Below, piece after piece: positions 2,596 to 36,895 of a stretch of 64,000 nt of DNA (positions are counted from its first letter, which is position 1; every line of letters starts with the position of its first letter). The notes beneath the pieces were generated by a model that saw only the letters and a list, made by a program, of their open reading frames with translations, did not search any database and had not been told where the DNA came from. The DNA lies in NCBI RefSeq assembly GCF_016026235.1, contig NZ_CP065613.1; one strand, 5' to 3'. This DNA is from Escherichia coli (GTDB lineage: Bacteria; Pseudomonadota; Gammaproteobacteria; Enterobacterales; Enterobacteriaceae). The translations under genes and the position numbers were made by a program.

Positions 2596-4010
2596 CTACT
2601 CATCTGGTCTGGTTTCGCCAGGATTTACGTCTGCACGATAATCTCGCGCTGGCTGCCGCCTGCCGCAATTCGTCTGCACGCGTGCTGGCGTTGTATATCG
2701 CTACACCACGCCAGTGGGCGGCGCATAACATGTCGCCGCGTCAGGCTAAACTTATCAATGCTCAACTGAATGGGCTACAAATCGCGCTGGCGGAAAAAGG
2801 TATTCCTTTATTGTTCCGTGAAGTGGATGACTTTGTCGCCAGCGTCGAAATAGTTAAACAGGTGTGCGCGGAAAACAGCGTTACTCATCTTTTTTATAAC
2901 TATCAGTATGAGGTGAATGAGCGGGCGCGGGATGTGGAAGTTGAAAGAGCGCTGCGTAACGTGGTGTGTGAAGGATTTGATGACAGCGTGATCCTGCCGC
3001 CTGGCGCGGTGATGACCGGCAATCATGAGATGTACAAAGTCTTTACGCCTTTTCAAAATGCCTGGCTGAAACGGCTGCGGGAAGGGATGCCGGAGTGCGT
3101 CGCTGCACCAAAAGTTCGTAGTAGCGGATCGATAAAGCCCGCGCCATCCATTACGCTGAATTATCCTCGTCAGTCTTTCGATACTGCGCATTTCCCGGTG
3201 GAAGAAAAAGAGGCGATTGCGCAATTACGCCAGTTTTGCCAGAACGGTGCCGGAGAATATGAGCAACAACGAGATTTTCCTGCAGTGGAAGGCACCAGTC
3301 GTTTGTCCGCCAGCCTGGCAACGGGCGGGTTATCGCCTCGCCAGTGTTTGCATCGCTTGTTGGCGGAACAGCCGCAGGCGCTGGACGGTGGGGCCGGTAG
3401 TGTCTGGCTTAGTGAGCTGATCTGGCGCGAGTTCTACCGTCATCTGATGACGTATTACCCCTCGTTGTGTAAACATTGTCCGTTTATTGCCTGGACGGAT
3501 CGTGTGCAGTGGCAAAGCAATCCCGCCCATTTAAAGGCCTGGCAGGAAGGCATAACGGGATACCCGATTGTCGATGCTGCCATGCGTCAGCTTAATAGCA
3601 CTGGCTGGATGCATAACCGGCTACGGATGATTACAGCCAGTTTTCTGGTGAAAGATTTATTGATCGACTGGCGCGAAGGCGAGCGATATTTCATGTCGCA
3701 GCTGATTGATGGTGATTTGGCAGCCAATAACGGTGGCTGGCAGTGGGCGGCTTCTACGGGTACTGATGCAGCGCCGTATTTTCGTATTTTCAACCCGACA
3801 ACCCAGGGCGAGAAATTTGACCGCGAAGGCGAGTTTATCCGCCAGTGGCTACCGGAACTGCGCGATGTACCGGGGAAATCGGTGCATGAGCCGTGGAAGT
3901 GGGCTGAGAAAGCAGGTGTGAAGCTGGATTATCCGCAACCGATAGTCGAGCACAAAGAGGCGAGAGTACAAACGTTGGCAGCGTATGAGGCGGCGCGGAA
4001 GGGGAAATAA
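2592..4010 (+). CDS. phr: Deoxyribodipyrimidine photolyase (CPD photolyase)
   Basis: 472-aa ORF MTTHLVWFRQDLRLHDNLALAAA...; photolyase N-terminal alpha/beta domain and FAD-binding C-terminal motifs (WREFY, GWMHNRLRM). Confidence 0.95.
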   Translation: MTTHLVWFRQDLRLHDNLALAAACRNSSARVLALYIATPRQWAAHNMSPRQAKLINAQLNGLQIALAEKGIPLLFREVDDFVASVEIVKQVCAENSVTHLFYNYQYEVNERARDVEVERALRNVVCEGFDDSVILPPGAVMTGNHEMYKVFTPFQNAWLKRLREGMPECVAAPKVRSSGSIKPAPSITLNYPRQSFDTAHFPVEEKEAIAQLRQFCQNGAGEYEQQRDFPAVEGTSRLSASLATGGLSPRQCLHRLLAEQPQALDGGAGSVWLSELIWREFYRHLMTYYPSLCKHCPFIAWTDRVQWQSNPAHLKAWQEGITGYPIVDAAMRQLNSTGWMHNRLRMITASFLVKDLLIDWREGERYFMSQLIDGDLAANNGGWQWAASTGTDAAPYFRIFNPTTQGEKFDREGEFIRQWLPELRDVPGKSVHEPWKWAEKAGVKLDYPQPIVEHKEARVQTLAAYEAARKGK

Positions 4011-4024
4011 CAGACGCGTCAGGC

Positions 4025-4147
4025 AATCGAGCCCAGATGCCGGATGCGGCGTGAACGCCTTATCCAGCCTACAAATTTGTGCAAATTCAATAAATTGCAG
4101 GAAATACGTAGGCCTGATAAGACGCGTCAAGCGTCGCATCAGGCATC
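4025..4147. repeat. REP/BIME palindromic units in the phr-dtpD convergent intergenic region
   Basis: gccggatgcggcgtgaacgccttatccagcctaca and gtaggcctgataagacgcgtcaagcgtcgcatcaggc; imperfect GC-rich palindromes of the REP family. Confidence 0.8.
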
Positions 4148-25847: not shown

Positions 25848-26035
25848 GCACTGTAGACCGGATAAGACATTATCGCCTTCTCCGGCAATTGAAGCCTGAT
25901 GCGACGCTTAACGCGTCTTATCAGGCCTACGGGAAGCACCGATGTAGGTCGGATAAGGCGCTCGCGCCGCATCCGACAAGCGATGCCAGATGCGACGCTT
26001 ACACGTCTTATCAGGCCTACGGGTGACCGACAATA
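25848..26035. repeat. REP/BIME cluster between sucB and sucC
   Basis: At least four palindromic units (gcctgatgcgacgcttaacgcgtcttatcaggcctac, gtaggtcggataaggcgctcgcgccgcatccgac, and others) within about 190 bp. Confidence 0.8.
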
Positions 26036-26105: not shown

Positions 26106-27272
26106 ATGAACTTACATGAATATCAGGCAAAACAACTTTTTGCCCGCTATGGCTTACCAGCACCGGTGGGTTATGCCTGTACTACTCCGCGCGAAGCAGA
26201 AGAAGCCGCTTCAAAAATCGGTGCCGGTCCGTGGGTAGTGAAATGTCAGGTTCACGCTGGTGGCCGCGGTAAAGCGGGCGGTGTGAAAGTTGTAAACAGT
26301 AAAGAAGACATCCGTGCTTTTGCAGAAAACTGGCTGGGCAAGCGTCTGGTAACGTATCAAACAGATGCCAATGGCCAACCGGTTAACCAGATTCTGGTTG
26401 AAGCGGCGACCGATATCGCTAAAGAGCTGTATCTCGGTGCCGTTGTAGACCGTAGTTCCCGTCGTGTGGTCTTTATGGCCTCCACCGAAGGCGGCGTGGA
26501 AATCGAAAAAGTGGCGGAAGAAACTCCGCACCTGATCCACAAAGTTGCGCTTGATCCGCTGACTGGCCCGATGCCGTATCAGGGACGCGAGCTGGCGTTC
26601 AAACTGGGTCTGGAAGGTAAACTGGTTCAGCAGTTCACCAAAATCTTCATGGGCCTGGCGACCATTTTCCTGGAGCGCGACCTGGCGTTGATCGAAATCA
26701 ACCCGCTGGTCATCACCAAACAGGGCGATCTGATTTGCCTCGACGGCAAACTGGGCGCTGATGGCAACGCACTGTTCCGCCAGCCTGATCTGCGCGAAAT
26801 GCGTGACCAGTCGCAGGAAGATCCACGTGAAGCACAGGCTGCACAGTGGGAACTGAACTACGTTGCGCTGGACGGTAACATCGGTTGTATGGTTAACGGC
26901 GCAGGTCTGGCGATGGGTACGATGGACATCGTTAAACTGCACGGCGGCGAACCAGCTAACTTCCTTGACGTTGGCGGCGGCGCAACCAAAGAACGTGTAA
27001 CCGAAGCGTTCAAAATCATCCTCTCTGACGACAAAGTGAAAGCCGTTCTGGTTAACATCTTCGGCGGTATCGTTCGTTGCGACCTGATCGCTGACGGAAT
27101 CATCGGCGCGGTAGCGGAAGTGGGTGTTAACGTACCGGTCGTGGTACGTCTGGAAGGTAACAACGCCGAACTCGGCGCGAAGAAACTGGCTGACAGCGGC
27201 CTGAATATTATTGCAGCAAAAGGTCTGACGGATGCAGCTCAGCAGGTTGTTGCCGCAGTGGAGGGGAAATAA
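26106..27272 (+). CDS. sucC: Succinyl-CoA ligase (ADP-forming) beta subunit
   Basis: 388-aa [66 protein letters not shown]... Confidence 0.97.
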
Positions 27273-28545: not shown

Positions 28546-28967
28546 CCTCGCGCATACAACCGGGCAGTGATGTGATTGTCTGCGCTGAAATGGACGAACA
28601 GTGGGGCTACGTCGGTGCTAAATCACGTCAGCGCTGGCTGTTTTACGCGTATGACAGGATACGGAGGACGGTTGTGGCGCACGTCTTCGGTGAACGCACT
28701 CTGGCCACACTGGAGCGTCTTCTGAGCCTGCTGTCGGCCTTTGAGGTCGTGGTATGGATGACGGATGGCTGGCCGCTGTATGAATCACGCCTGAAGGGAA
28801 AGCTGCACGTTATCAGCAAGCGTTACACTCAGCGCATTGAGCGACATAATCTGAATCTGAGACAACATCTGGCAAGGCTGGGACGGAAGTCACTGTCGTT
28901 CTCAAAATCGGTGGAGCTGCATGACAAGGTCATCGGGCATTATCTGAACATAAAACACTATCAGTAA
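28464..28967 (+). CDS. insB: IS1 InsB reading frame (expressed as the InsAB' transposase by -1 frameshift)
   Basis: 167-aa ORF in the -1 frame relative to insA, overlapping it; slippery ttaaaaaactc motif near 28520-28530. Confidence 0.9.
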
Positions 28968-28982
28968 GTTGGAGTCATTACC

Positions 28983-28991
28983 TCGACATGG
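28983..28991. repeat. Right copy of the 9-bp IS1 target-site duplication (tcgacatgg)
   Basis: Identical to 28206-28214. Confidence 0.85.
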
Positions 28992-28993
28992 TT

Positions 28994-29018
28994 GGCCATC
29001 GTATGATGGCCTTTTTTG
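28994..29018. terminator. Native sucD/SdhX intrinsic terminator, now downstream of IS1; bidirectional with mngR
   Basis: Hairpin ggccatcgtatgatggcc followed by TTTTTT; lies 4 nt before the mngR stop on the opposite strand. Confidence 0.7.
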
Positions 29019-29021
29019 TGC

Positions 29022-29744
29022 TTATCGCGATGATTTTCGCTGCGCTATCAGGGTAAATTTATAGTCATCGGTATTAAAAGCGTTGCGGCTATATTCAAAC
29101 ACCCGACCATCAACTAAATATCCACGCGATACTTTTTCAAGAATCGGCTTTGTCTGGCTGATATTAAGCAGACGGCTCATCTCTTCGGTTGGCATCAGAG
29201 GAATGATTTCCTGTTCGCTACGATCGATAACCATCTTCTTCACTTCTTCAATAAAGTGATATTTCGAATTTTCCATGACCTGCCAGGTGAGATCCGGGAA
29301 CAACGCAAGCGGCATCCAGGTTTCTTCCAGCGCCATTGGCTTTTGCTTGCGATAGCGCACGCGCTTCACATGCCACACACGATCCTGCGCGGTGATTTGT
29401 AGCTGTTGCTGAAGAAAATCGTCAGCCGGAATCACTTCAAATATCAGGACTTCACTGTGTGTATCGACGTGACGGTCCGACAGTTTTTCATCAAAACTGG
29501 TTAACTGAAAAATATCGTAATTGACCCGCTCTTCTTTGACGTAAGTCCCGCTGCCCTGAATGCTTTCGAGGATCTGTTGCTCGACTAACTGGCGCAAAGC
29601 CTGACGCACCGTAACCCGGCTGACGCCAAACTCTGTTTGTAATGCCGATTCGGTAGGTAACGCATCGCCAGGTTTAAGCTCGCCACGCGCAATTTGTTCA
29701 CGAATGCGATCGGCAATCTGCCGGTATAAGGGCTTGTGTCCCAT
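29022..29744 (-). CDS. mngR: GntR/HutC-family transcriptional repressor of the mannosyl-D-glycerate operon
   Basis: 240-aa ORF MGHKPLYRQIADRIREQIARGELKPGDALPTESALQTEFGVSRVTVRQALRQL (winged HTH) plus UTRA effector domain. Confidence 0.92.
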   Translation of the reverse strand: MGHKPLYRQIADRIREQIARGELKPGDALPTESALQTEFGVSRVTVRQALRQLVEQQILESIQGSGTYVKEERVNYDIFQLTSFDEKLSDRHVDTHSEVLIFEVIPADDFLQQQLQITAQDRVWHVKRVRYRKQKPMALEETWMPLALFPDLTWQVMENSKYHFIEEVKKMVIDRSEQEIIPLMPTEEMSRLLNISQTKPILEKVSRGYLVDGRVFEYSRNAFNTDDYKFTLIAQRKSSR

Positions 29745-29852
29745 TTTTAGTATCTCATTAATACGAATTTAGCCATTATGCCCGATAAATTCATCCTGTA
29801 AATAATACAAATACAATACAAATAATTTCAATCAAGTGAAATTGATCACATA

Positions 29853-31829
29853 ATGGTATTGTTTTATCGGGCACACTGGCGCGACTATAAAAACGATCAA
29901 GTGAGGATCATGATGAATCTGACGACTCTGACCCACCGCGATGCGTTGTGTCTGAATGCGCGCTTTACCAGCCGTGAAGAGGCCATCCACGCGTTGACTC
30001 AACGTCTTGCTGCTCTGGGGAAAATTTCCAGTACTGAGCAATTTCTGGAAGAAGTGTATCGCCGTGAAAGCCTTGGCCCGACCGCCTTAGGTGAAGGGTT
30101 GGCTGTGCCGCATGGCAAAACTGCTGCGGTAAAAGAAGCGGCGTTTGCGGTCGCCACACTCAGCGAGCCGCTTCAGTGGGAAGGCGTGGATGGCCCGGAA
30201 GCGGTTGATTTAGTGGTGTTGCTGGCGATTCCCCCCAATGAAGCGGGTACTACGCACATGCAACTGCTGACAGCGCTGACCACGCGCCTGGCTGATGATG
30301 AGATCAGGGCGCGTATACAGTCGGCGACGACGCCTGATGAATTGCTCTCGGCGCTGGATGACAAGGGAGGCTCGCAACCTTCTGCCTCTTTTTCCAACGC
30401 GCCAACTATCGTTTGCGTAACGGCCTGTCCGGCGGGTATTGCTCACACCTATATGGCTGCGGAATATCTGGAAAAAGCCGGACGCAAACTCGGCGTAAAT
30501 GTTTACGTTGAAAAACAAGGTGCTAACGGCATTGAAGGGCGTTTAACGGCGGATCAACTCAATAGTGCAACCGCCTGTATTTTTGCGGCTGAAGTCGCCA
30601 TCAAGGAGAGTGAGCGTTTTAATGGCATTCCCGCGCTTTCAGTGCCTGTTGCCGAGCCGATTCGCCATGCAGAAGCGTTGATCCAACAAGCGCTTACCCT
30701 CAAGCGTAGCGATGAGACGCGTACCGTACAGCAAGATACGCAACCGGTGAAAAGTGTCAAAACGGAGCTGAAACAGGCACTGTTGAGCGGAATCTCTTTT
30801 GCCGTACCGTTGATTGTCGCGGGGGGCACGGTGCTGGCGGTTGCAGTATTACTGTCGCAAATCTTCGGGCTACAAGATTTGTTTAATGAAGAAAACTCCT
30901 GGCTGTGGATGTACCGCAAACTGGGCGGCGGGATGCTCGGGATTTTGATGGTGCCGGTGCTCGCGGCCTATACCGCCTATTCACTGGGTGATAAACCGGC
31001 GTTAGCGCCAGGCTTTGCGGCTGGACTTGCCGCCAACATGATCGGTTCCGGGTTTCTCGGCGCGGTCGTTGGCGGATTGATAGCCGGTTACTTGATGCGC
31101 TGGGTGAAAAATCACTTGCGTCTTAGCAGTAAATTCAATGGCTTCCTGACTTTTTATCTCTACCCGGTGCTCGGTACATTGGGAGCGGGCAGTCTGATGC
31201 TGTTTGTGGTGGGGGAACCTGTCGCCTGGATCAATAACTCGCTTACCGCCTGGCTGAACGGTCTGTCAGGAAGTAACGCGCTGTTGCTGGGTGCCATTCT
31301 CGGTTTTATGTGTTCCTTTGACCTTGGAGGGCCAGTGAATAAAGCCGCTTATGCATTCTGCCTGGGCGCAATGGCGAACGGCGTTTACGGCCCGTATGCC
31401 ATTTTCGCCTCCGTCAAAATGGTTTCGGCATTTACCGTAACCGCTTCCACGATGCTCGCACCGCGCCTGTTTAAAGAGTTTGAAATTGAGACCGGGAAAT
31501 CCACCTGGCTGTTAGGGCTGGCAGGTATTACCGAAGGGGCGATCCCGATGGCGATTGAAGATCCGCTGCGGGTTATTGGTTCGTTTGTGCTGGGCTCTAT
31601 GGTAACGGGCGCTATTGTCGGTGCGATGAATATCGGCCTTTCGACACCCGGTGCCGGCATTTTCTCGCTCTTTTTACTTCATGATAATGGCGCGGGCGGT
31701 GTTATGGCGGCAATTGGCTGGTTTGGCGCGGCATTGGTGGGGGCTGCAATCTCGACTGCAATTCTCCTGATGTGGCGGCGTCACGCGGTTAAGCATGGCA
31801 ACTATCTGACTGATGGCGTAATGCCATAA
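29853..31829 (+). CDS. mngA: PTS 2-O-alpha-mannosyl-D-glycerate-specific EIIABC component
   Basis: 658-aa ORF with N-terminal EIIA-like domain, EIIB Cys motif ([16 protein letters not shown]) and a large membrane EIIC domain. Confidence 0.9.
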
Positions 31830-31846
31830 ACAAAAAGGAAACGACG

Positions 31847-34480
31847 ATGAAAGCAGTATCTCGCGTTCACATCACCCCGCATATGCACTGGGATCGGGAG
31901 TGGTATTTCACCACCGAAGAGTCACGCATTCTGCTGGTCAATAATATGGAAGAGATCCTGTGCCGACTGGAACAGGACAACGAATACAAATATTACGTAC
32001 TCGACGGGCAAACGGCGATCCTCGAAGATTATTTCGCGGTGAAACCGGAAAACAAAGACCGCGTGAAGAAACAGGTAGAAGCCGGCAAGTTGATTATCGG
32101 CCCCTGGTATACCCAGACCGATACCACGATTGTTTCTGCGGAATCCATCGTCCGTAATCTGATGTACGGAATGCGTGACTGCCTCGCGTTTGGCGAGCCG
32201 ATGAAAATAGGTTATTTACCAGATTCCTTTGGCATGTCCGGGCAACTGCCGCATATCTACAATGGATTTGGCATTACCCGCACCATGTTCTGGCGCGGAT
32301 GTTCGGAGCGCCACGGTACTGATAAAACCGAGTTTTTGTGGCAAAGCAGTGACGGTAGCGAAGTGACGGCGCAGGTGCTGCCGCTGGGCTACGCCATCGG
32401 TAAGTACTTACCTGCCGACGAAAACGGATTACGTAAACGCCTCGACAGTTATTTTGACGTGCTGGAAAAAGCGTCTGTAACCAAAGAGATTTTGCTGCCG
32501 AATGGTCATGACCAGATGCCATTGCAGCAAAATATCTTCGAAGTGATGGATAAGCTACGTGAGATCTACCCTCAACGTAAGTTTGTGATGAGCCGCTTTG
32601 AAGAGGTATTTGAGAAGATCGAAGCGCAGCGTGAAAGTCTGGCCACCCTGAAAGGTGAATTTATCGATGGCAAATATATGCGCGTACATCGCACCATCGG
32701 TTCCACGCGCATGGATATCAAAATTGCCCACGCACGTATTGAAAATAAGATTGTTAATCTGCTGGAACCGCTGGCAACGCTGGCCTGGACGTTGGGTTTT
32801 GAATACCACCACGGCTTGCTGGAGAAAATGTGGAAAGAGATCTTAAAAAATCATGCCCACGACAGTATCGGTTGTTGTTGCAGTGACAAAGTTCATCGCG
32901 AAATTGTCGCCCGCTTCGAACTGGCTGAAGACATGGCGGATAATCTGCTGCGTTTCTACATGCGCAAAATTGCCGATAACATGCCACAGAGTGATGCCGA
33001 CAAACTCGTGCTGTTTAACCTGATGCCCTGGCCGCGGGAAGAAGTTATTAACACCACTGTGCGGCTGCGCGCCAGCCAGTTTAATCTACGAGACGATCGC
33101 GGTCAGCCTGTACCGTATTTTATTCGCCATGCCCGTGAGATCGATCCAGGCCTAATCGATCGGCAAATAGTTCATTACGGTAATTACGATCCCTTTATGG
33201 AGTTTGATATACAGATCAACCAGATTGTCCCTTCTATGGGCTATCGCACGCTTTATATCGAAGCGAATCAGCCTGGCAACGTGATTGCGGCAAAAAGTGA
33301 CGCTGAAGGGATACTGGAAAATGCTTTCTGGCAAATTGCGCTCAATGAGGATGGTTCTCTGCAACTGGTAGATAAAGACAGCGGTGTGCGCTATGACCGG
33401 GTATTGCAAATTGAAGAAAGCTCTGATGATGGTGATGAATATGACTATTCACCCGCAAAAGAAGAGTGGGTAATTACCGCAGCGAACGCGAAACCGCAAT
33501 GCGATATTATTCATGAAGCCTGGCAGAGCAGGGCTGTTATCCGCTATGACATGGCAGTGCCGCTCAATTTGTCAGAACGCAGCGCCCGGCAATCCACTGG
33601 CAGAGTAGGGGTGGTGTTGATTGTCACTCTTAGTCATAACAGCAGGCGTATTGATGTGGATATCAACCTTGATAACCAGGCTGACGATCATCGCCTTCGT
33701 GTCCTGGTCCCTACACCTTTTAACACCGACAGTGTTCTGGCAGATACGCAGTTTGGTTCGCTAACGCGCCCCGTGAACGACAGTGCAATAAACAACTGGC
33801 AGCAAGAAGGCTGGAAAGAAGCGCCGGTTCCGGTATGGAATATGCTCAACTATGTTGCCTTACAGGAAGGGCGTAACGGCATGGCTGTCTTTAGCGAAGG
33901 GTTACGTGAATTTGAAGTCATCGGTGAAGAGAAGAAAACCTTTGCCATTACGTTGCTGCGTGGCGTGGGCTTACTGGGCAAAGAAGATCTGCTTTTAAGG
34001 CCTGGGAGGCCTTCGGGAATTAAAATGCCAGTCCCGGACTCACAACTACGTGGTCTGCTTTTTTGTCGCCTAAGTTTATTGAGTTATACCGGTACGCCAA
34101 CCGCCGCTGGTGTAGCTCAGCAGGCGCGAGCATGGCTGACTCCAGTACAGTGTTACAACAAAATCCCATGGGATGCGATGAAGCTCAACAAAGCCGGATT
34201 CAACGTGCCGGAAAGTTATAGTTTGTTGAAAATGCCCCCAGTGGGATGCCTGATAAGCGCACTTAAGAAAGCTGAAGACCGACAAGAAGTGATTTTACGG
34301 CTGTTTAATCCGGCTGAATCAGCAACCTGTGATGCGACTGTTGCTTTCAGTCGCGAGGTGATTTCTTGCTCAGAAACGATGATGGATGAACACATTACCA
34401 CCGAGGAAAATCAAGGTTCAAATCTATCGGGGCCTTTTTTACCCGGCCAGTCACGGACGTTCAGTTACCGGCTTGCCTGA
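31847..34480 (+). CDS. mngB: Mannosylglycerate hydrolase (GH38 alpha-mannosidase)
   Basis: 877-aa [41 protein letters not shown]... (GH38 N-terminal metal-binding motif). Confidence 0.92.
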
Positions 34481-34977
34481 ATAGCAATCAAACCGAAGCC
34501 ACATATGCGCGGCCAGATTGTTGACAAAGGGCGCTTTGTTCATGCCGGATACGGCATGAACGCTTTATTCGGTCTACAAAAGCAGGCAAATTCAATATAT
34601 TGCAGAGATGATGTAGACACTGGCAAGCGTAGTGCATCAGGTAATTTTGCGTTTATCTTCACTCTCAAGCCACGTATATGTGGCTTTATTTTTAACAAAA
34701 TAATAACCCTGGGTGAGTTAATTATAATATAATTATAAGTTAATTAAATGTTAATATTGGCGGGGTGGATTTATGCCTTTATTAGTAATCCTGAAACTCT
34801 GCGTCGTATTAGCCAGTGACCAAAAAAAGAATTAAGGTCAACCGTGCTGTTTTTGCTTCGTCTCTTTTTATCTTTAATTGCCAACCGAAACTAATTTCAG
34901 CCTTATAACTCACACATTTTAAACATAAATGTCACTAAAGTTACCTTATTGAAACATGATTAACATAATTTGTAGGA

Positions 34978-34991
34978 ATTGATATTTATCA
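34978..34991. promoter_or_regulatory. Perfect FNR/CRP-family palindrome TTGAT-ATTT-ATCAA in the cydA upstream region
   Basis: Exact match to TTGATnnnnATCAA about 340 nt upstream of the cydA start; cydAB is known to be FNR/ArcA regulated. Confidence 0.55.
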
Positions 34992-35326
34992 ATGTATAAG
35001 TCTTGGAAATGGGCATCAAAAAGAGATAAATTGTTCTCGATCAAATTAGCTGAAAGGCGGTAATTTAGCTATAAATTGATCACCGTCGAAAAATGCAAAT
35101 TTGCTTCAACAAAAACCTGTTTATTGTAAGGATTTTGCGGCGTAATATATACGTGGGATCAATTTGAGTTTTTATTAACATGTTTGCAACCTTTCTTTAC
35201 GCCGTTTTTGTGTGCATTCACATGGTATGATGAAAGTGTTCAAACAAATTTCTATTGGGGCATGCGTGTGACCCTTTCTAACGGGGTTCACTCTCGGAGT
35301 CTTCATGCGATGAGCAAGGAGTCATG

Positions 35327-36895
35327 ATGTTAGATATAGTCGAACTGTCGCGCTTACAGTTTGCCTTGACCGCGATGTACCACTTCCTTTTTGTGCCACT
35401 GACGCTCGGTATGGCGTTCCTGCTGGCCATTATGGAAACGGTCTACGTCCTCTCCGGCAAACAGATTTATAAAGATATGACCAAGTTCTGGGGCAAGTTG
35501 TTTGGTATCAACTTCGCTCTGGGTGTGGCTACCGGTCTGACCATGGAGTTCCAGTTCGGGACTAACTGGTCTTACTATTCCCACTATGTAGGGGATATCT
35601 TCGGTGCGCCGCTGGCAATCGAAGGTCTGATGGCCTTCTTCCTCGAATCCACCTTTGTAGGTCTGTTCTTCTTCGGTTGGGATCGTCTGGGTAAAGTTCA
35701 GCATATGTGTGTCACCTGGCTGGTGGCGCTCGGTTCAAACCTGTCCGCACTGTGGATTCTGGTTGCGAACGGCTGGATGCAAAACCCAATCGCGTCCGAT
35801 TTCAACTTTGAAACTATGCGTATGGAGATGGTGAGCTTCTCCGAGCTGGTGCTTAACCCGGTTGCTCAGGTGAAATTCGTTCACACTGTAGCGTCTGGTT
35901 ATGTGACTGGCGCGATGTTCATCCTCGGTATCAGCGCATGGTATATGCTGAAAGGTCGTGACTTCGCCTTCGCTAAACGCTCCTTTGCTATCGCTGCCAG
36001 CTTCGGTATGGCTGCTGTTCTGTCTGTTATTGTTCTGGGTGATGAATCCGGCTACGAAATGGGCGACGTGCAGAAAACCAAACTGGCTGCTATTGAAGCC
36101 GAGTGGGAAACGCAACCTGCGCCTGCTGCCTTTACTCTGTTCGGCATTCCTGATCAGGAAGAGGAGACGAACAAATTTGCGATTCAGATCCCTTACGCAC
36201 TGGGCATCATTGCAACGCGTTCCGTGGATACCCCGGTTATCGGCCTGAAAGAGCTGATGGTGCAGCATGAAGAACGCATTCGTAACGGGATGAAGGCGTA
36301 CTCTCTGCTCGAACAACTGCGTTCTGGTTCTACCGACCAGGCGGTTCGTGACCAGTTCAATAGCATGAAGAAAGACCTCGGTTACGGTCTGCTGCTGAAA
36401 CGCTATACGCCAAACGTGGCTGATGCGACTGAAGCGCAGATTCAACAGGCAACCAAAGACTCCATCCCGCGTGTAGCGCCGCTGTACTTTGCGTTCCGTA
36501 TCATGGTGGCGTGTGGCTTCCTGCTTCTGGCAATCATCGCGCTCTCTTTCTGGAGTGTCATCCGCAACCGCATTGGCGAGAAAAAATGGCTTCTGCGCGC
36601 CGCGCTGTACGGTATTCCGCTGCCGTGGATTGCTGTAGAAGCGGGCTGGTTCGTGGCTGAATATGGCCGCCAACCGTGGGCTATCGGTGAAGTGCTGCCG
36701 ACAGCTGTGGCGAACTCGTCACTGACCGCAGGCGATCTCATCTTCTCAATGGTGCTGATTTGCGGCCTGTATACTCTGTTCCTGGTGGCAGAATTGTTCT
36801 TAATGTTCAAGTTTGCACGCCTCGGCCCAAGCAGCCTGAAAACCGGTCGCTATCACTTTGAGCAGTCTTCCACGACTACTCAGCCGGCACGCTAA
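35327..36895 (+). CDS. cydA: Cytochrome bd-I ubiquinol oxidase subunit I
   Basis: Track ORF 35324..36895; start at [38 protein letters not shown]..., 522 aa. Confidence 0.96.

Follow-up and report, generated by a model that had tools for sequence, protein, structure and literature searches.

The gap in front of cydA raises a simple question: what fills the 846 bp between the end of mngB at 34480 and the annotated start of cydA at 35327, and do all E. coli carry the same DNA there? The window, the 64-kb stretch of E. coli DNA analysed here, is collinear with E. coli K-12 MG1655, and the spacer differs from the MG1655 sequence at three SNPs (34633, 34744 and 35048). No other intergenic gap in the overlapping 50 kb of MG1655 annotation is as long, in agreement with a sequence-only reading that had called the spacer non-coding and unusually long; no conserved protein-coding gene fills it. 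The GC content is 24-35% over 34650-35250 versus about 50% in the flanking genes. The non-coding stretch before cydA measures 630-800 bp in six other Enterobacterales, so the long control region is an old property and no oddity of this genome. It is close to certain that the interval consists of the mngB 3' flank followed by the classical cydABX regulatory region (Table 1). This control region is already known, and the palindrome within it is a documented FNR repressor site. As cydAB is among the best-characterised oxygen-responsive bacterial promoters, the palindrome and the spacer add nothing new in themselves.

The elements, their statistics and their conservation were computed here; in vivo occupancy and the direction of regulation were taken from the literature. 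Coordinates in U00096.2 were converted to window coordinates by subtracting 735,354, and the conversion was verified on the sequence of the cydA1 site of Park et al. The upstream regions of cydA were compared among other E. coli, four other Escherichia species and several Citrobacter collected by a 23-mer scan, and further in Yokenella, an Enterobacter, Pantoea, Serratia, Dickeya and one Salmonella-labelled genome. The last of these (L019, AP025685.1) is labelled Salmonella enterica serovar Choleraesuis. Identity to E. coli is only 88% for its CydA protein and 84% over the initial 600 nt of its cydA; the organism label may be wrong.

Table 1. Features of the mngB-cydA spacer and the start of cydA, in window coordinates.
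Feature	Position	Strand	Details
75-aa ORF, ATG start, almost certainly spurious	34505-34732	+	Spans both REP-like elements and the terminator
REP-like element, degenerate, Y-type	34544-34577	+	85% identity over 34 nt to REP consensus
Partial REP-like element, inverted	34625-34641	-	Match over only 17 nt; BIME-like pair with 34544-34577
K-12-haplotype-specific segment	34660-35252	.	Right-hand divergence boundary at 35252
Intrinsic terminator of mngAB	34667-34695	+	Hairpin AAGCCACGTATATGTGGCTT (34667-34686) followed by TATTTTTAAC; terminator scan
ArcA region I (cydA1, Park et al. 2013)	34727-34757	+	770081-770111 in U00096.2
ArcA region II (cydA2)	34906-34957	-	770260-770311 in Park 2013 supplement; overlaps ChIP-seq peak centre
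FNR site 1, perfect palindrome TTGATATTTATCAA	34979-34992	.	Centred at -53.5 of promoter P1; 10/10 consensus positions
P1 core, putative	35003-35030	+	-35 TTGGAA 35003-35008; -10 GATAAA 35025-35030; start near 35039
FNR site 2, TTGTTCTCGATCAA	35031-35044	.	9/10 consensus positions; overlaps P1 start
Downstream promoter	35124-35155	+	-35-like TTGTAA 35124-35129; -10-like TATATA 35146-35151; mapped start 35155
ArcA region III (cydA3)	35172-35202	-	770526-770556 in Park 2013 supplement
Ultra-conserved cydA leader, 74 nt	35253-35326	+	Hairpin 35268-35291; Shine-Dalgarno AAGGAG 35316-35321
21-codon uORF, not a conserved coding frame	35262-35327	+	ATG at 35262; TGA 35325-35327 overlaps cydA start
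cydA, cytochrome bd-I subunit I	35327-36895	+	MG1655 annotation

The first 215 bp or so of the spacer (34481-34695) are the 3' flank of mngB and do not belong to cydA. Two segments in this flank look like decayed REP copies when scored against the REP consensus, which is borne out by perfect or near-perfect matches at 21543-21576 and 4039-4072 of the window. The DNA carrying the pair (34530-34650) folds at -36.9 kcal/mol with a z score of -2.5. Well-preserved REP clusters lie at 4039-4144, 21500-21617 and 25853-26020, in contrast to the decayed pair at 34544-34641. The mngAB terminator follows, with a hairpin of -10.2 kcal/mol (z -3.7). A hairpin is found at the same position after mngB in Citrobacter.

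The palindrome matches the FNR consensus perfectly. The sequence-only reading had called it an exact FNR-type match, and that much holds; the position it gave (34978-34991) was 1 bp off. The window holds two copies of the pattern TTGAT-N4-ATCAA, where 0.12 would be expected. Seven taxa, namely both E. coli alleles, E. albertii, E. whittamii, Citrobacter, Yokenella and Enterobacter, have a perfect copy at -346 to -351 relative to the cydA start codon, with four variable bases at its centre. A constant position with a variable centre is the signature expected for the site of a dimeric regulator. The pattern of site 2, TTGT-N6-TCAA, is kept out to Serratia, Dickeya and Pantoea; its right end reads G/ATCAA in Enterobacteriaceae, Serratia and Pantoea, and GGTCAA in Dickeya.

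Published data place FNR at this promoter in vivo. Table 1 of Myers et al. (2013) lists a cydAB FNR ChIP-seq peak at 770,404, which is window position 35050, with the top site at -53.5. The same work classes cydAB as directly and partially repressed by FNR, citing Cotter 1997 for FNR binding and Govantes 2000 for regulation. With site 1 centred at -53.5, the P1 start falls near 35039, and site 2 is in turn centred at -1.5. An FNR site at -1.5 of the cydAB promoter was reportedly described by Cotter et al. in 1997, and we take site 2, which lies 52 bp downstream of site 1, to be that site. Taken together with the occupancy and the direction of regulation known from the literature, the sequence supports the palindrome as a probable functional FNR site. 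The other exact TTGAT-N4-ATCAA of the window, TTGATCGAAATCAA, is at 26688-26701 in the sucB-sucC intergenic region (26609-26882).

The sequence-only reading had also attributed the AT-rich blocks to multiple promoters and to ArcA and H-NS sites. Three ArcA ChIP-seq regions and one mapped transcription start in the spacer bear out the first two, and a literature statement on cydAB bears out the third. Park et al. (2013) found the three ArcA regions upstream of cydA in line with earlier footprints, predicted three-repeat ArcA sites for cydA1 and cydA3, and concluded that ArcA activates cydAB mainly by disrupting H-NS repression. Judged by base composition, the spacer would probably be bound by H-NS. 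Region I contains a perfect 15-mer, GTTAATTAAATGTTA, at 34739-34753, a match that appeared in 0.02% of simulations and that provides the TGTTA-type direct repeat with a spacing of about 11 bp. The 15-mer consensus used for scoring is that of the ArcA box. The T at 34744 turns the published ArcA site AAGTTAACTAAATGTTAA into the perfect GTTAATTAAATGTTA; MG1655 has C at this position. The core of region III, TTAACAT-TTTG-AAC, is kept in the other E. coli allele. A promoter-like site on the minus strand, TTAACA-17-TATATT (10/12) at 34754-34726, points to mngB and overlaps region I.

Two promoters can be placed on the sequence. The hexamers given for P1 are those that suit the -53.5 position of FNR site 1 and a reading of the sequence, and they probably form its core; the other E. 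coli allele has TTGAAA and GATAAA. The downstream promoter has a mapped start. The supplement of Kim et al. (2012) gives a cydA transcription start at 770,509, equivalent to window position 35155, and its 50 nt of upstream sequence match the window. A transcript from this start would carry a 172-nt leader before the cydA ATG. E. albertii, E. whittamii, two further Escherichia species and several Citrobacter have exact copies of the block CCTGTTTATTGTAAGGATTTTGC, and the promoter block at about 35116-35138 is exact across Escherichia and Citrobacter. FNR site 2 and this -172 promoter block are kept across genera, whereas the surrounding sequence is only 73-83% identical. A sigma-70 consensus scan of the spacer found no more sites than in shuffled sequences and missed both P1 and the promoter that starts at 35155, for which reason it was given no weight. 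The cydAB region is said to hold five promoters, a layout credited to Cotter (1997) and Govantes (2000) and repeated in secondary citations.

The arrangement suggests how the region may work. After the mngAB terminator, about 550 bp of AT-rich DNA would carry several sigma-70 promoters and binding sites, which together would make the expression of cytochrome bd-I peak at low oxygen. Under anaerobic conditions active FNR would bind both the perfect site 1 (34979-34992) and the near-perfect site 2 (35031-35044), and, since the latter overlaps the P1 start, would partly repress transcription. Phosphorylated ArcA would bind at 34727-34757, 34906-34957 and 35172-35202 and activate, mainly by displacing H-NS from the AT-rich DNA. 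The last 74 nt of the transcripts before cydA would form a highly conserved leader.

This leader (35253-35326) is identical from E. coli, in both alleles, to the aligned C. sedlakii and C. amalonaticus, a range over which the first 600 nt of cydA itself differ by 7-8%. Within Escherichia and Citrobacter the only exceptions are E. albertii, with one substitution, and a Citrobacter MAG, with a 1-nt deletion. The hairpin at 35268-35291 has a folding energy of -9.7 kcal/mol (z -2.3), and three of its pairs show compensatory changes across the small sample of five sequences. The variable leader positions keep the hairpin paired, which points to a constraint at the RNA level. The fold of the whole 106-nt leader is not unusual (z = +0.9); only this sub-hairpin stands out. 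The hairpin that would sequester the Shine-Dalgarno sequence is invariant across the sequences and is no better than those of shuffles (z = -0.6). The leader also carries two GGAGUC motifs, and GGA stands at 35296-35298 and 35318-35320. CsrA was reported to activate the translation of cydABX 3.5-fold in Salmonella, and such activation is a plausible cause of the conservation. An extra in-frame ATG at 35324 precedes the annotated start of cydA at 35327; this first ATG is not conserved, other genera having AAGATG.

Other explanations of these elements have to be weighed. A palindrome of this kind could be a chance match, since AT-rich DNA raises the odds of A/T-rich palindromes, or it could be a CRP site instead of an FNR site. 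However, a perfect site arose in only 0.4% of trials in first-order Markov simulations of the AT-rich spacer (P = 0.004), and it stays at a constant distance from cydA in the seven taxa while its flanks diverge. Its half-site is TTGAT and not TGTGA, the half-site consensus of CRP. With a published FNR ChIP-seq peak over the palindrome as well, neither chance nor CRP has any appreciable probability, and the FNR site remains the preferred reading. A small-protein gene at 34505-34732 is just as hard to credit. The 75-aa ORF begins with ATG, and only some RefSeq genomes list it, as 'hypothetical protein' WP_001324497.1. But it runs through two REP-like elements and the mngAB terminator, shows no visible Shine-Dalgarno sequence, is unannotated in MG1655, and matched no family in a Pfam scan, as was also true of a 47-aa ORF upstream of cydA. 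Its sequence is absent from 2249 of the 5426 complete E. coli genomes, which have the other allele, and from the aligned Citrobacter spacers. The sequence-only reading had likewise seen no Shine-Dalgarno sequence and judged the ORF probably not a gene, a judgement with which all of this agrees.

The same reading had left room for a small regulatory RNA or a leader peptide, and this caveat gained no support. An unannotated small RNA gene would suit the length of the spacer, the minus-strand promoter-like site at 34754-34726 and a weak Rfam match to ES036. This match, the best found, covers 18 nt (34586-34603) and scores 21.9 bits where the gathering threshold is 37.6 (E = 0.44); in a scan of 33500-36500 at a permissive E-value, no Rfam family reached its threshold. 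No ncRNA is annotated here in MG1655, though the nearby sdhX is, 41% of E. coli genomes lack the distal half of the spacer, and promoter-like sites are no more numerous than in shuffles. A small RNA gene in the spacer is thus very improbable. Somewhat less so, yet still unlikely, is a leader peptide, that is, translation of the 21-codon uORF that couples to or gates the translation of cydA. The uORF has its ATG where the conserved leader begins and its TGA shares bases with the cydA ATGATG; Escherichia and Citrobacter keep the frame open, and AP025685 has a 23-codon version. In Yokenella and the Enterobacter sp., however, a 1-nt indel cuts it to six codons despite about 90% nucleotide conservation of the leader, and Serratia, Dickeya and Pantoea lack the ATG. 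This loss of the frame in other genera makes the sole plausible uORF an unlikely source of a peptide. The variable positions preserve the hairpin, with its three compensatory pairs, in accord with constraint on the RNA, and the GGGG one base from the ATG would be poorly spaced as a Shine-Dalgarno sequence. A literature search found no paper linking cydA with a uORF or leader peptide, and the ribosome-profiling supplement of PMC10746267 has no entry for cydA or mngB. On the whole, the interpretation given by the sequence-only reading is supported in every part, its sole error being the 1-bp coordinate offset.

The second half of the question, whether all E. coli carry the same spacer, has a different answer. 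The K-12-type spacer is present at at least 95% identity in 3171-3177 of the 5426 complete E. coli genomes (about 59%), and at at least 99% in 3174. The remaining 41% or so match only the cydA-proximal 310-375 bp, at about 80%. The segment 34660-34960 was found in 3177 of the 5426 genomes and in none of the others, even by blastn. The alternative allele is about 22% divergent over the proximal 275 bp and has no homology further upstream. Between -350 and -76 the K-12 type is 76-82% identical to all alternative alleles, and 76-79% to the three alternative-allele E. coli that were aligned. The divergence stops abruptly, with the last differing base at 35252 and identity from 35253 onward. The first 600 nt of cydA are 99% identical between the allele classes, and both have the same CydA accession, WP_000884361.1. 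The locus therefore shows a near-identical core gene, a divergent upstream region and a sharp boundary, the pattern of a switched intergenic region.

K-12, ATCC 8739 and an O121 strain carry the K-12 type. The alternative allele is carried by O157:H7 Xuzhou21, O145 RM10425 and MS10711, a human urine isolate, and also by UPEC-labelled strains. The loci compared for the haplotypes were L003, L004, L005, L006, L009, L013, L016 and L017. Both FNR sites and the -172 promoter with its start at 35155 are kept in the two E. coli alleles, which differ in ArcA region I, in the sequence between the sites and in the downstream -10 (TATATA versus TATAAT). Such differences imply that the oxygen tuning of cytochrome bd-I could differ between the allele groups.

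Comparison with other species bears on which allele is the older. Over -350 to -76 the K-12 type is 73-82% identical to every other sampled sequence of Escherichia, Citrobacter, Yokenella and Enterobacter. Over the same stretch the alternative allele has 93-98% identity to E. albertii, E. whittamii and two unnamed Escherichia species, and 79-83% to Citrobacter. As the alternative allele stands near the other Escherichia and the K-12 type stands at roughly inter-genus divergence, as far from the alternative as Citrobacter is, the alternative looks vertically inherited in the genus and the K-12 type looks like a replacement. On these identities we put the chances at about even that the K-12 cydAB promoter is a non-ancestral haplotype, which would have replaced the original between the 3' part of mngB and a point 75 nt before cydA. 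In that case the FNR sites and the -172 promoter would have survived the swap. Since the operators are kept in both alleles, the exchange would have brought in an orthologous promoter of genus-level divergence and not an unrelated one.

The left end of the divergent tract can be followed in strain TUM13770, which has both mngB and the alternative promoter. Its mngB (locus L004 750-3383, compared with window 31847-34480) is 95, 91, 84 and 82% identical to that of the window in successive quarters. The fall from 95% to 82% indicates that the divergent tract seems to begin inside mngB, and suggests either a mosaic gene or a recombination tract starting within it. As for a donor, none of the sampled Citrobacter, Yokenella and Enterobacter is closer than about 80% to the K-12 type; the single genome-collection scan, which supplied the Citrobacter and the other Escherichia, returned only species with an exact 23-mer. 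The adjacency of mngB and cydA in Citrobacter made that genus a candidate donor. It was discarded on the grounds that its identity to the K-12 type is only 78-81%, no better than to the Escherichia allele, and that its mngB 3' quarters are only 72-77% identical.

The wider sucD-cydA interval is a hotspot whose cargo differs by strain. Among the intervals compared (window 28919-35326, L003 1-6376, L004 1-6312 and L005 3699-6382), the cargo was mngR-mngA-mngB, mngAB with a frameshifted TPR gene, a TPR pseudogene alone, or a methylaspartate mutase/ammonia-lyase cluster with two hypothetical genes. An IS1A is inserted in the mngB-cydA spacer of USDA-ARS-USMARC-51688 (NZ_CP104112.1 1412825-1414447).

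The promoter dimorphism is the only item at this locus that might merit follow-up. Mechanistic studies of cydAB have dealt almost entirely with the K-12 allele, whereas in about two-fifths of E. coli genomes roughly one promoter base in five is different. Cytochrome bd-I has a part in gut colonisation and nitric oxide resistance, which would give weight to any allele-specific regulation of cydAB. Horizontal regulatory transfer in E. coli was reportedly described by Oren et al. in 2014. Swapped intergenic regions are known in E. coli, and the cydA promoter dimorphism is without a description in the papers searched; the literature search turned up none that connects cydA to regulatory switching or phylogroup recombination. 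A recent survey reports high general conservation of E. coli regulatory regions, against which the cydA promoter locus is an outlier.

The nearest known system is the E. coli K-12 cydAB promoter itself (Cotter 1997; Govantes 2000; Myers 2013; Park 2013). It is the same locus with an identical gene order, and after coordinate conversion its FNR sites, three ArcA regions and mapped transcription start are the same as those in the window; the window spacer departs from MG1655 at the three SNPs given above. Among FNR targets, cydAB resembles the complex, ArcA-co-regulated class of direct repression described by Myers et al. (hdeD, gadE, hdeAB-yhiD, ompC and ompW), in which FNR represses from sites upstream of or overlapping the start and expression has a microaerobic optimum; ndh is the simple case. 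What sets cydAB apart from these operons is its pair of tandem FNR sites at a distance of 52 bp, the unusual length of its multi-promoter region and its three separate ArcA regions. The switched intergenic regions described by Thorpe et al. (2018, 'Piggy', PMC5890482) likewise place a core gene behind strongly divergent upstream regions. The cydA alleles differ from them in that both retain the key operator and promoter elements.
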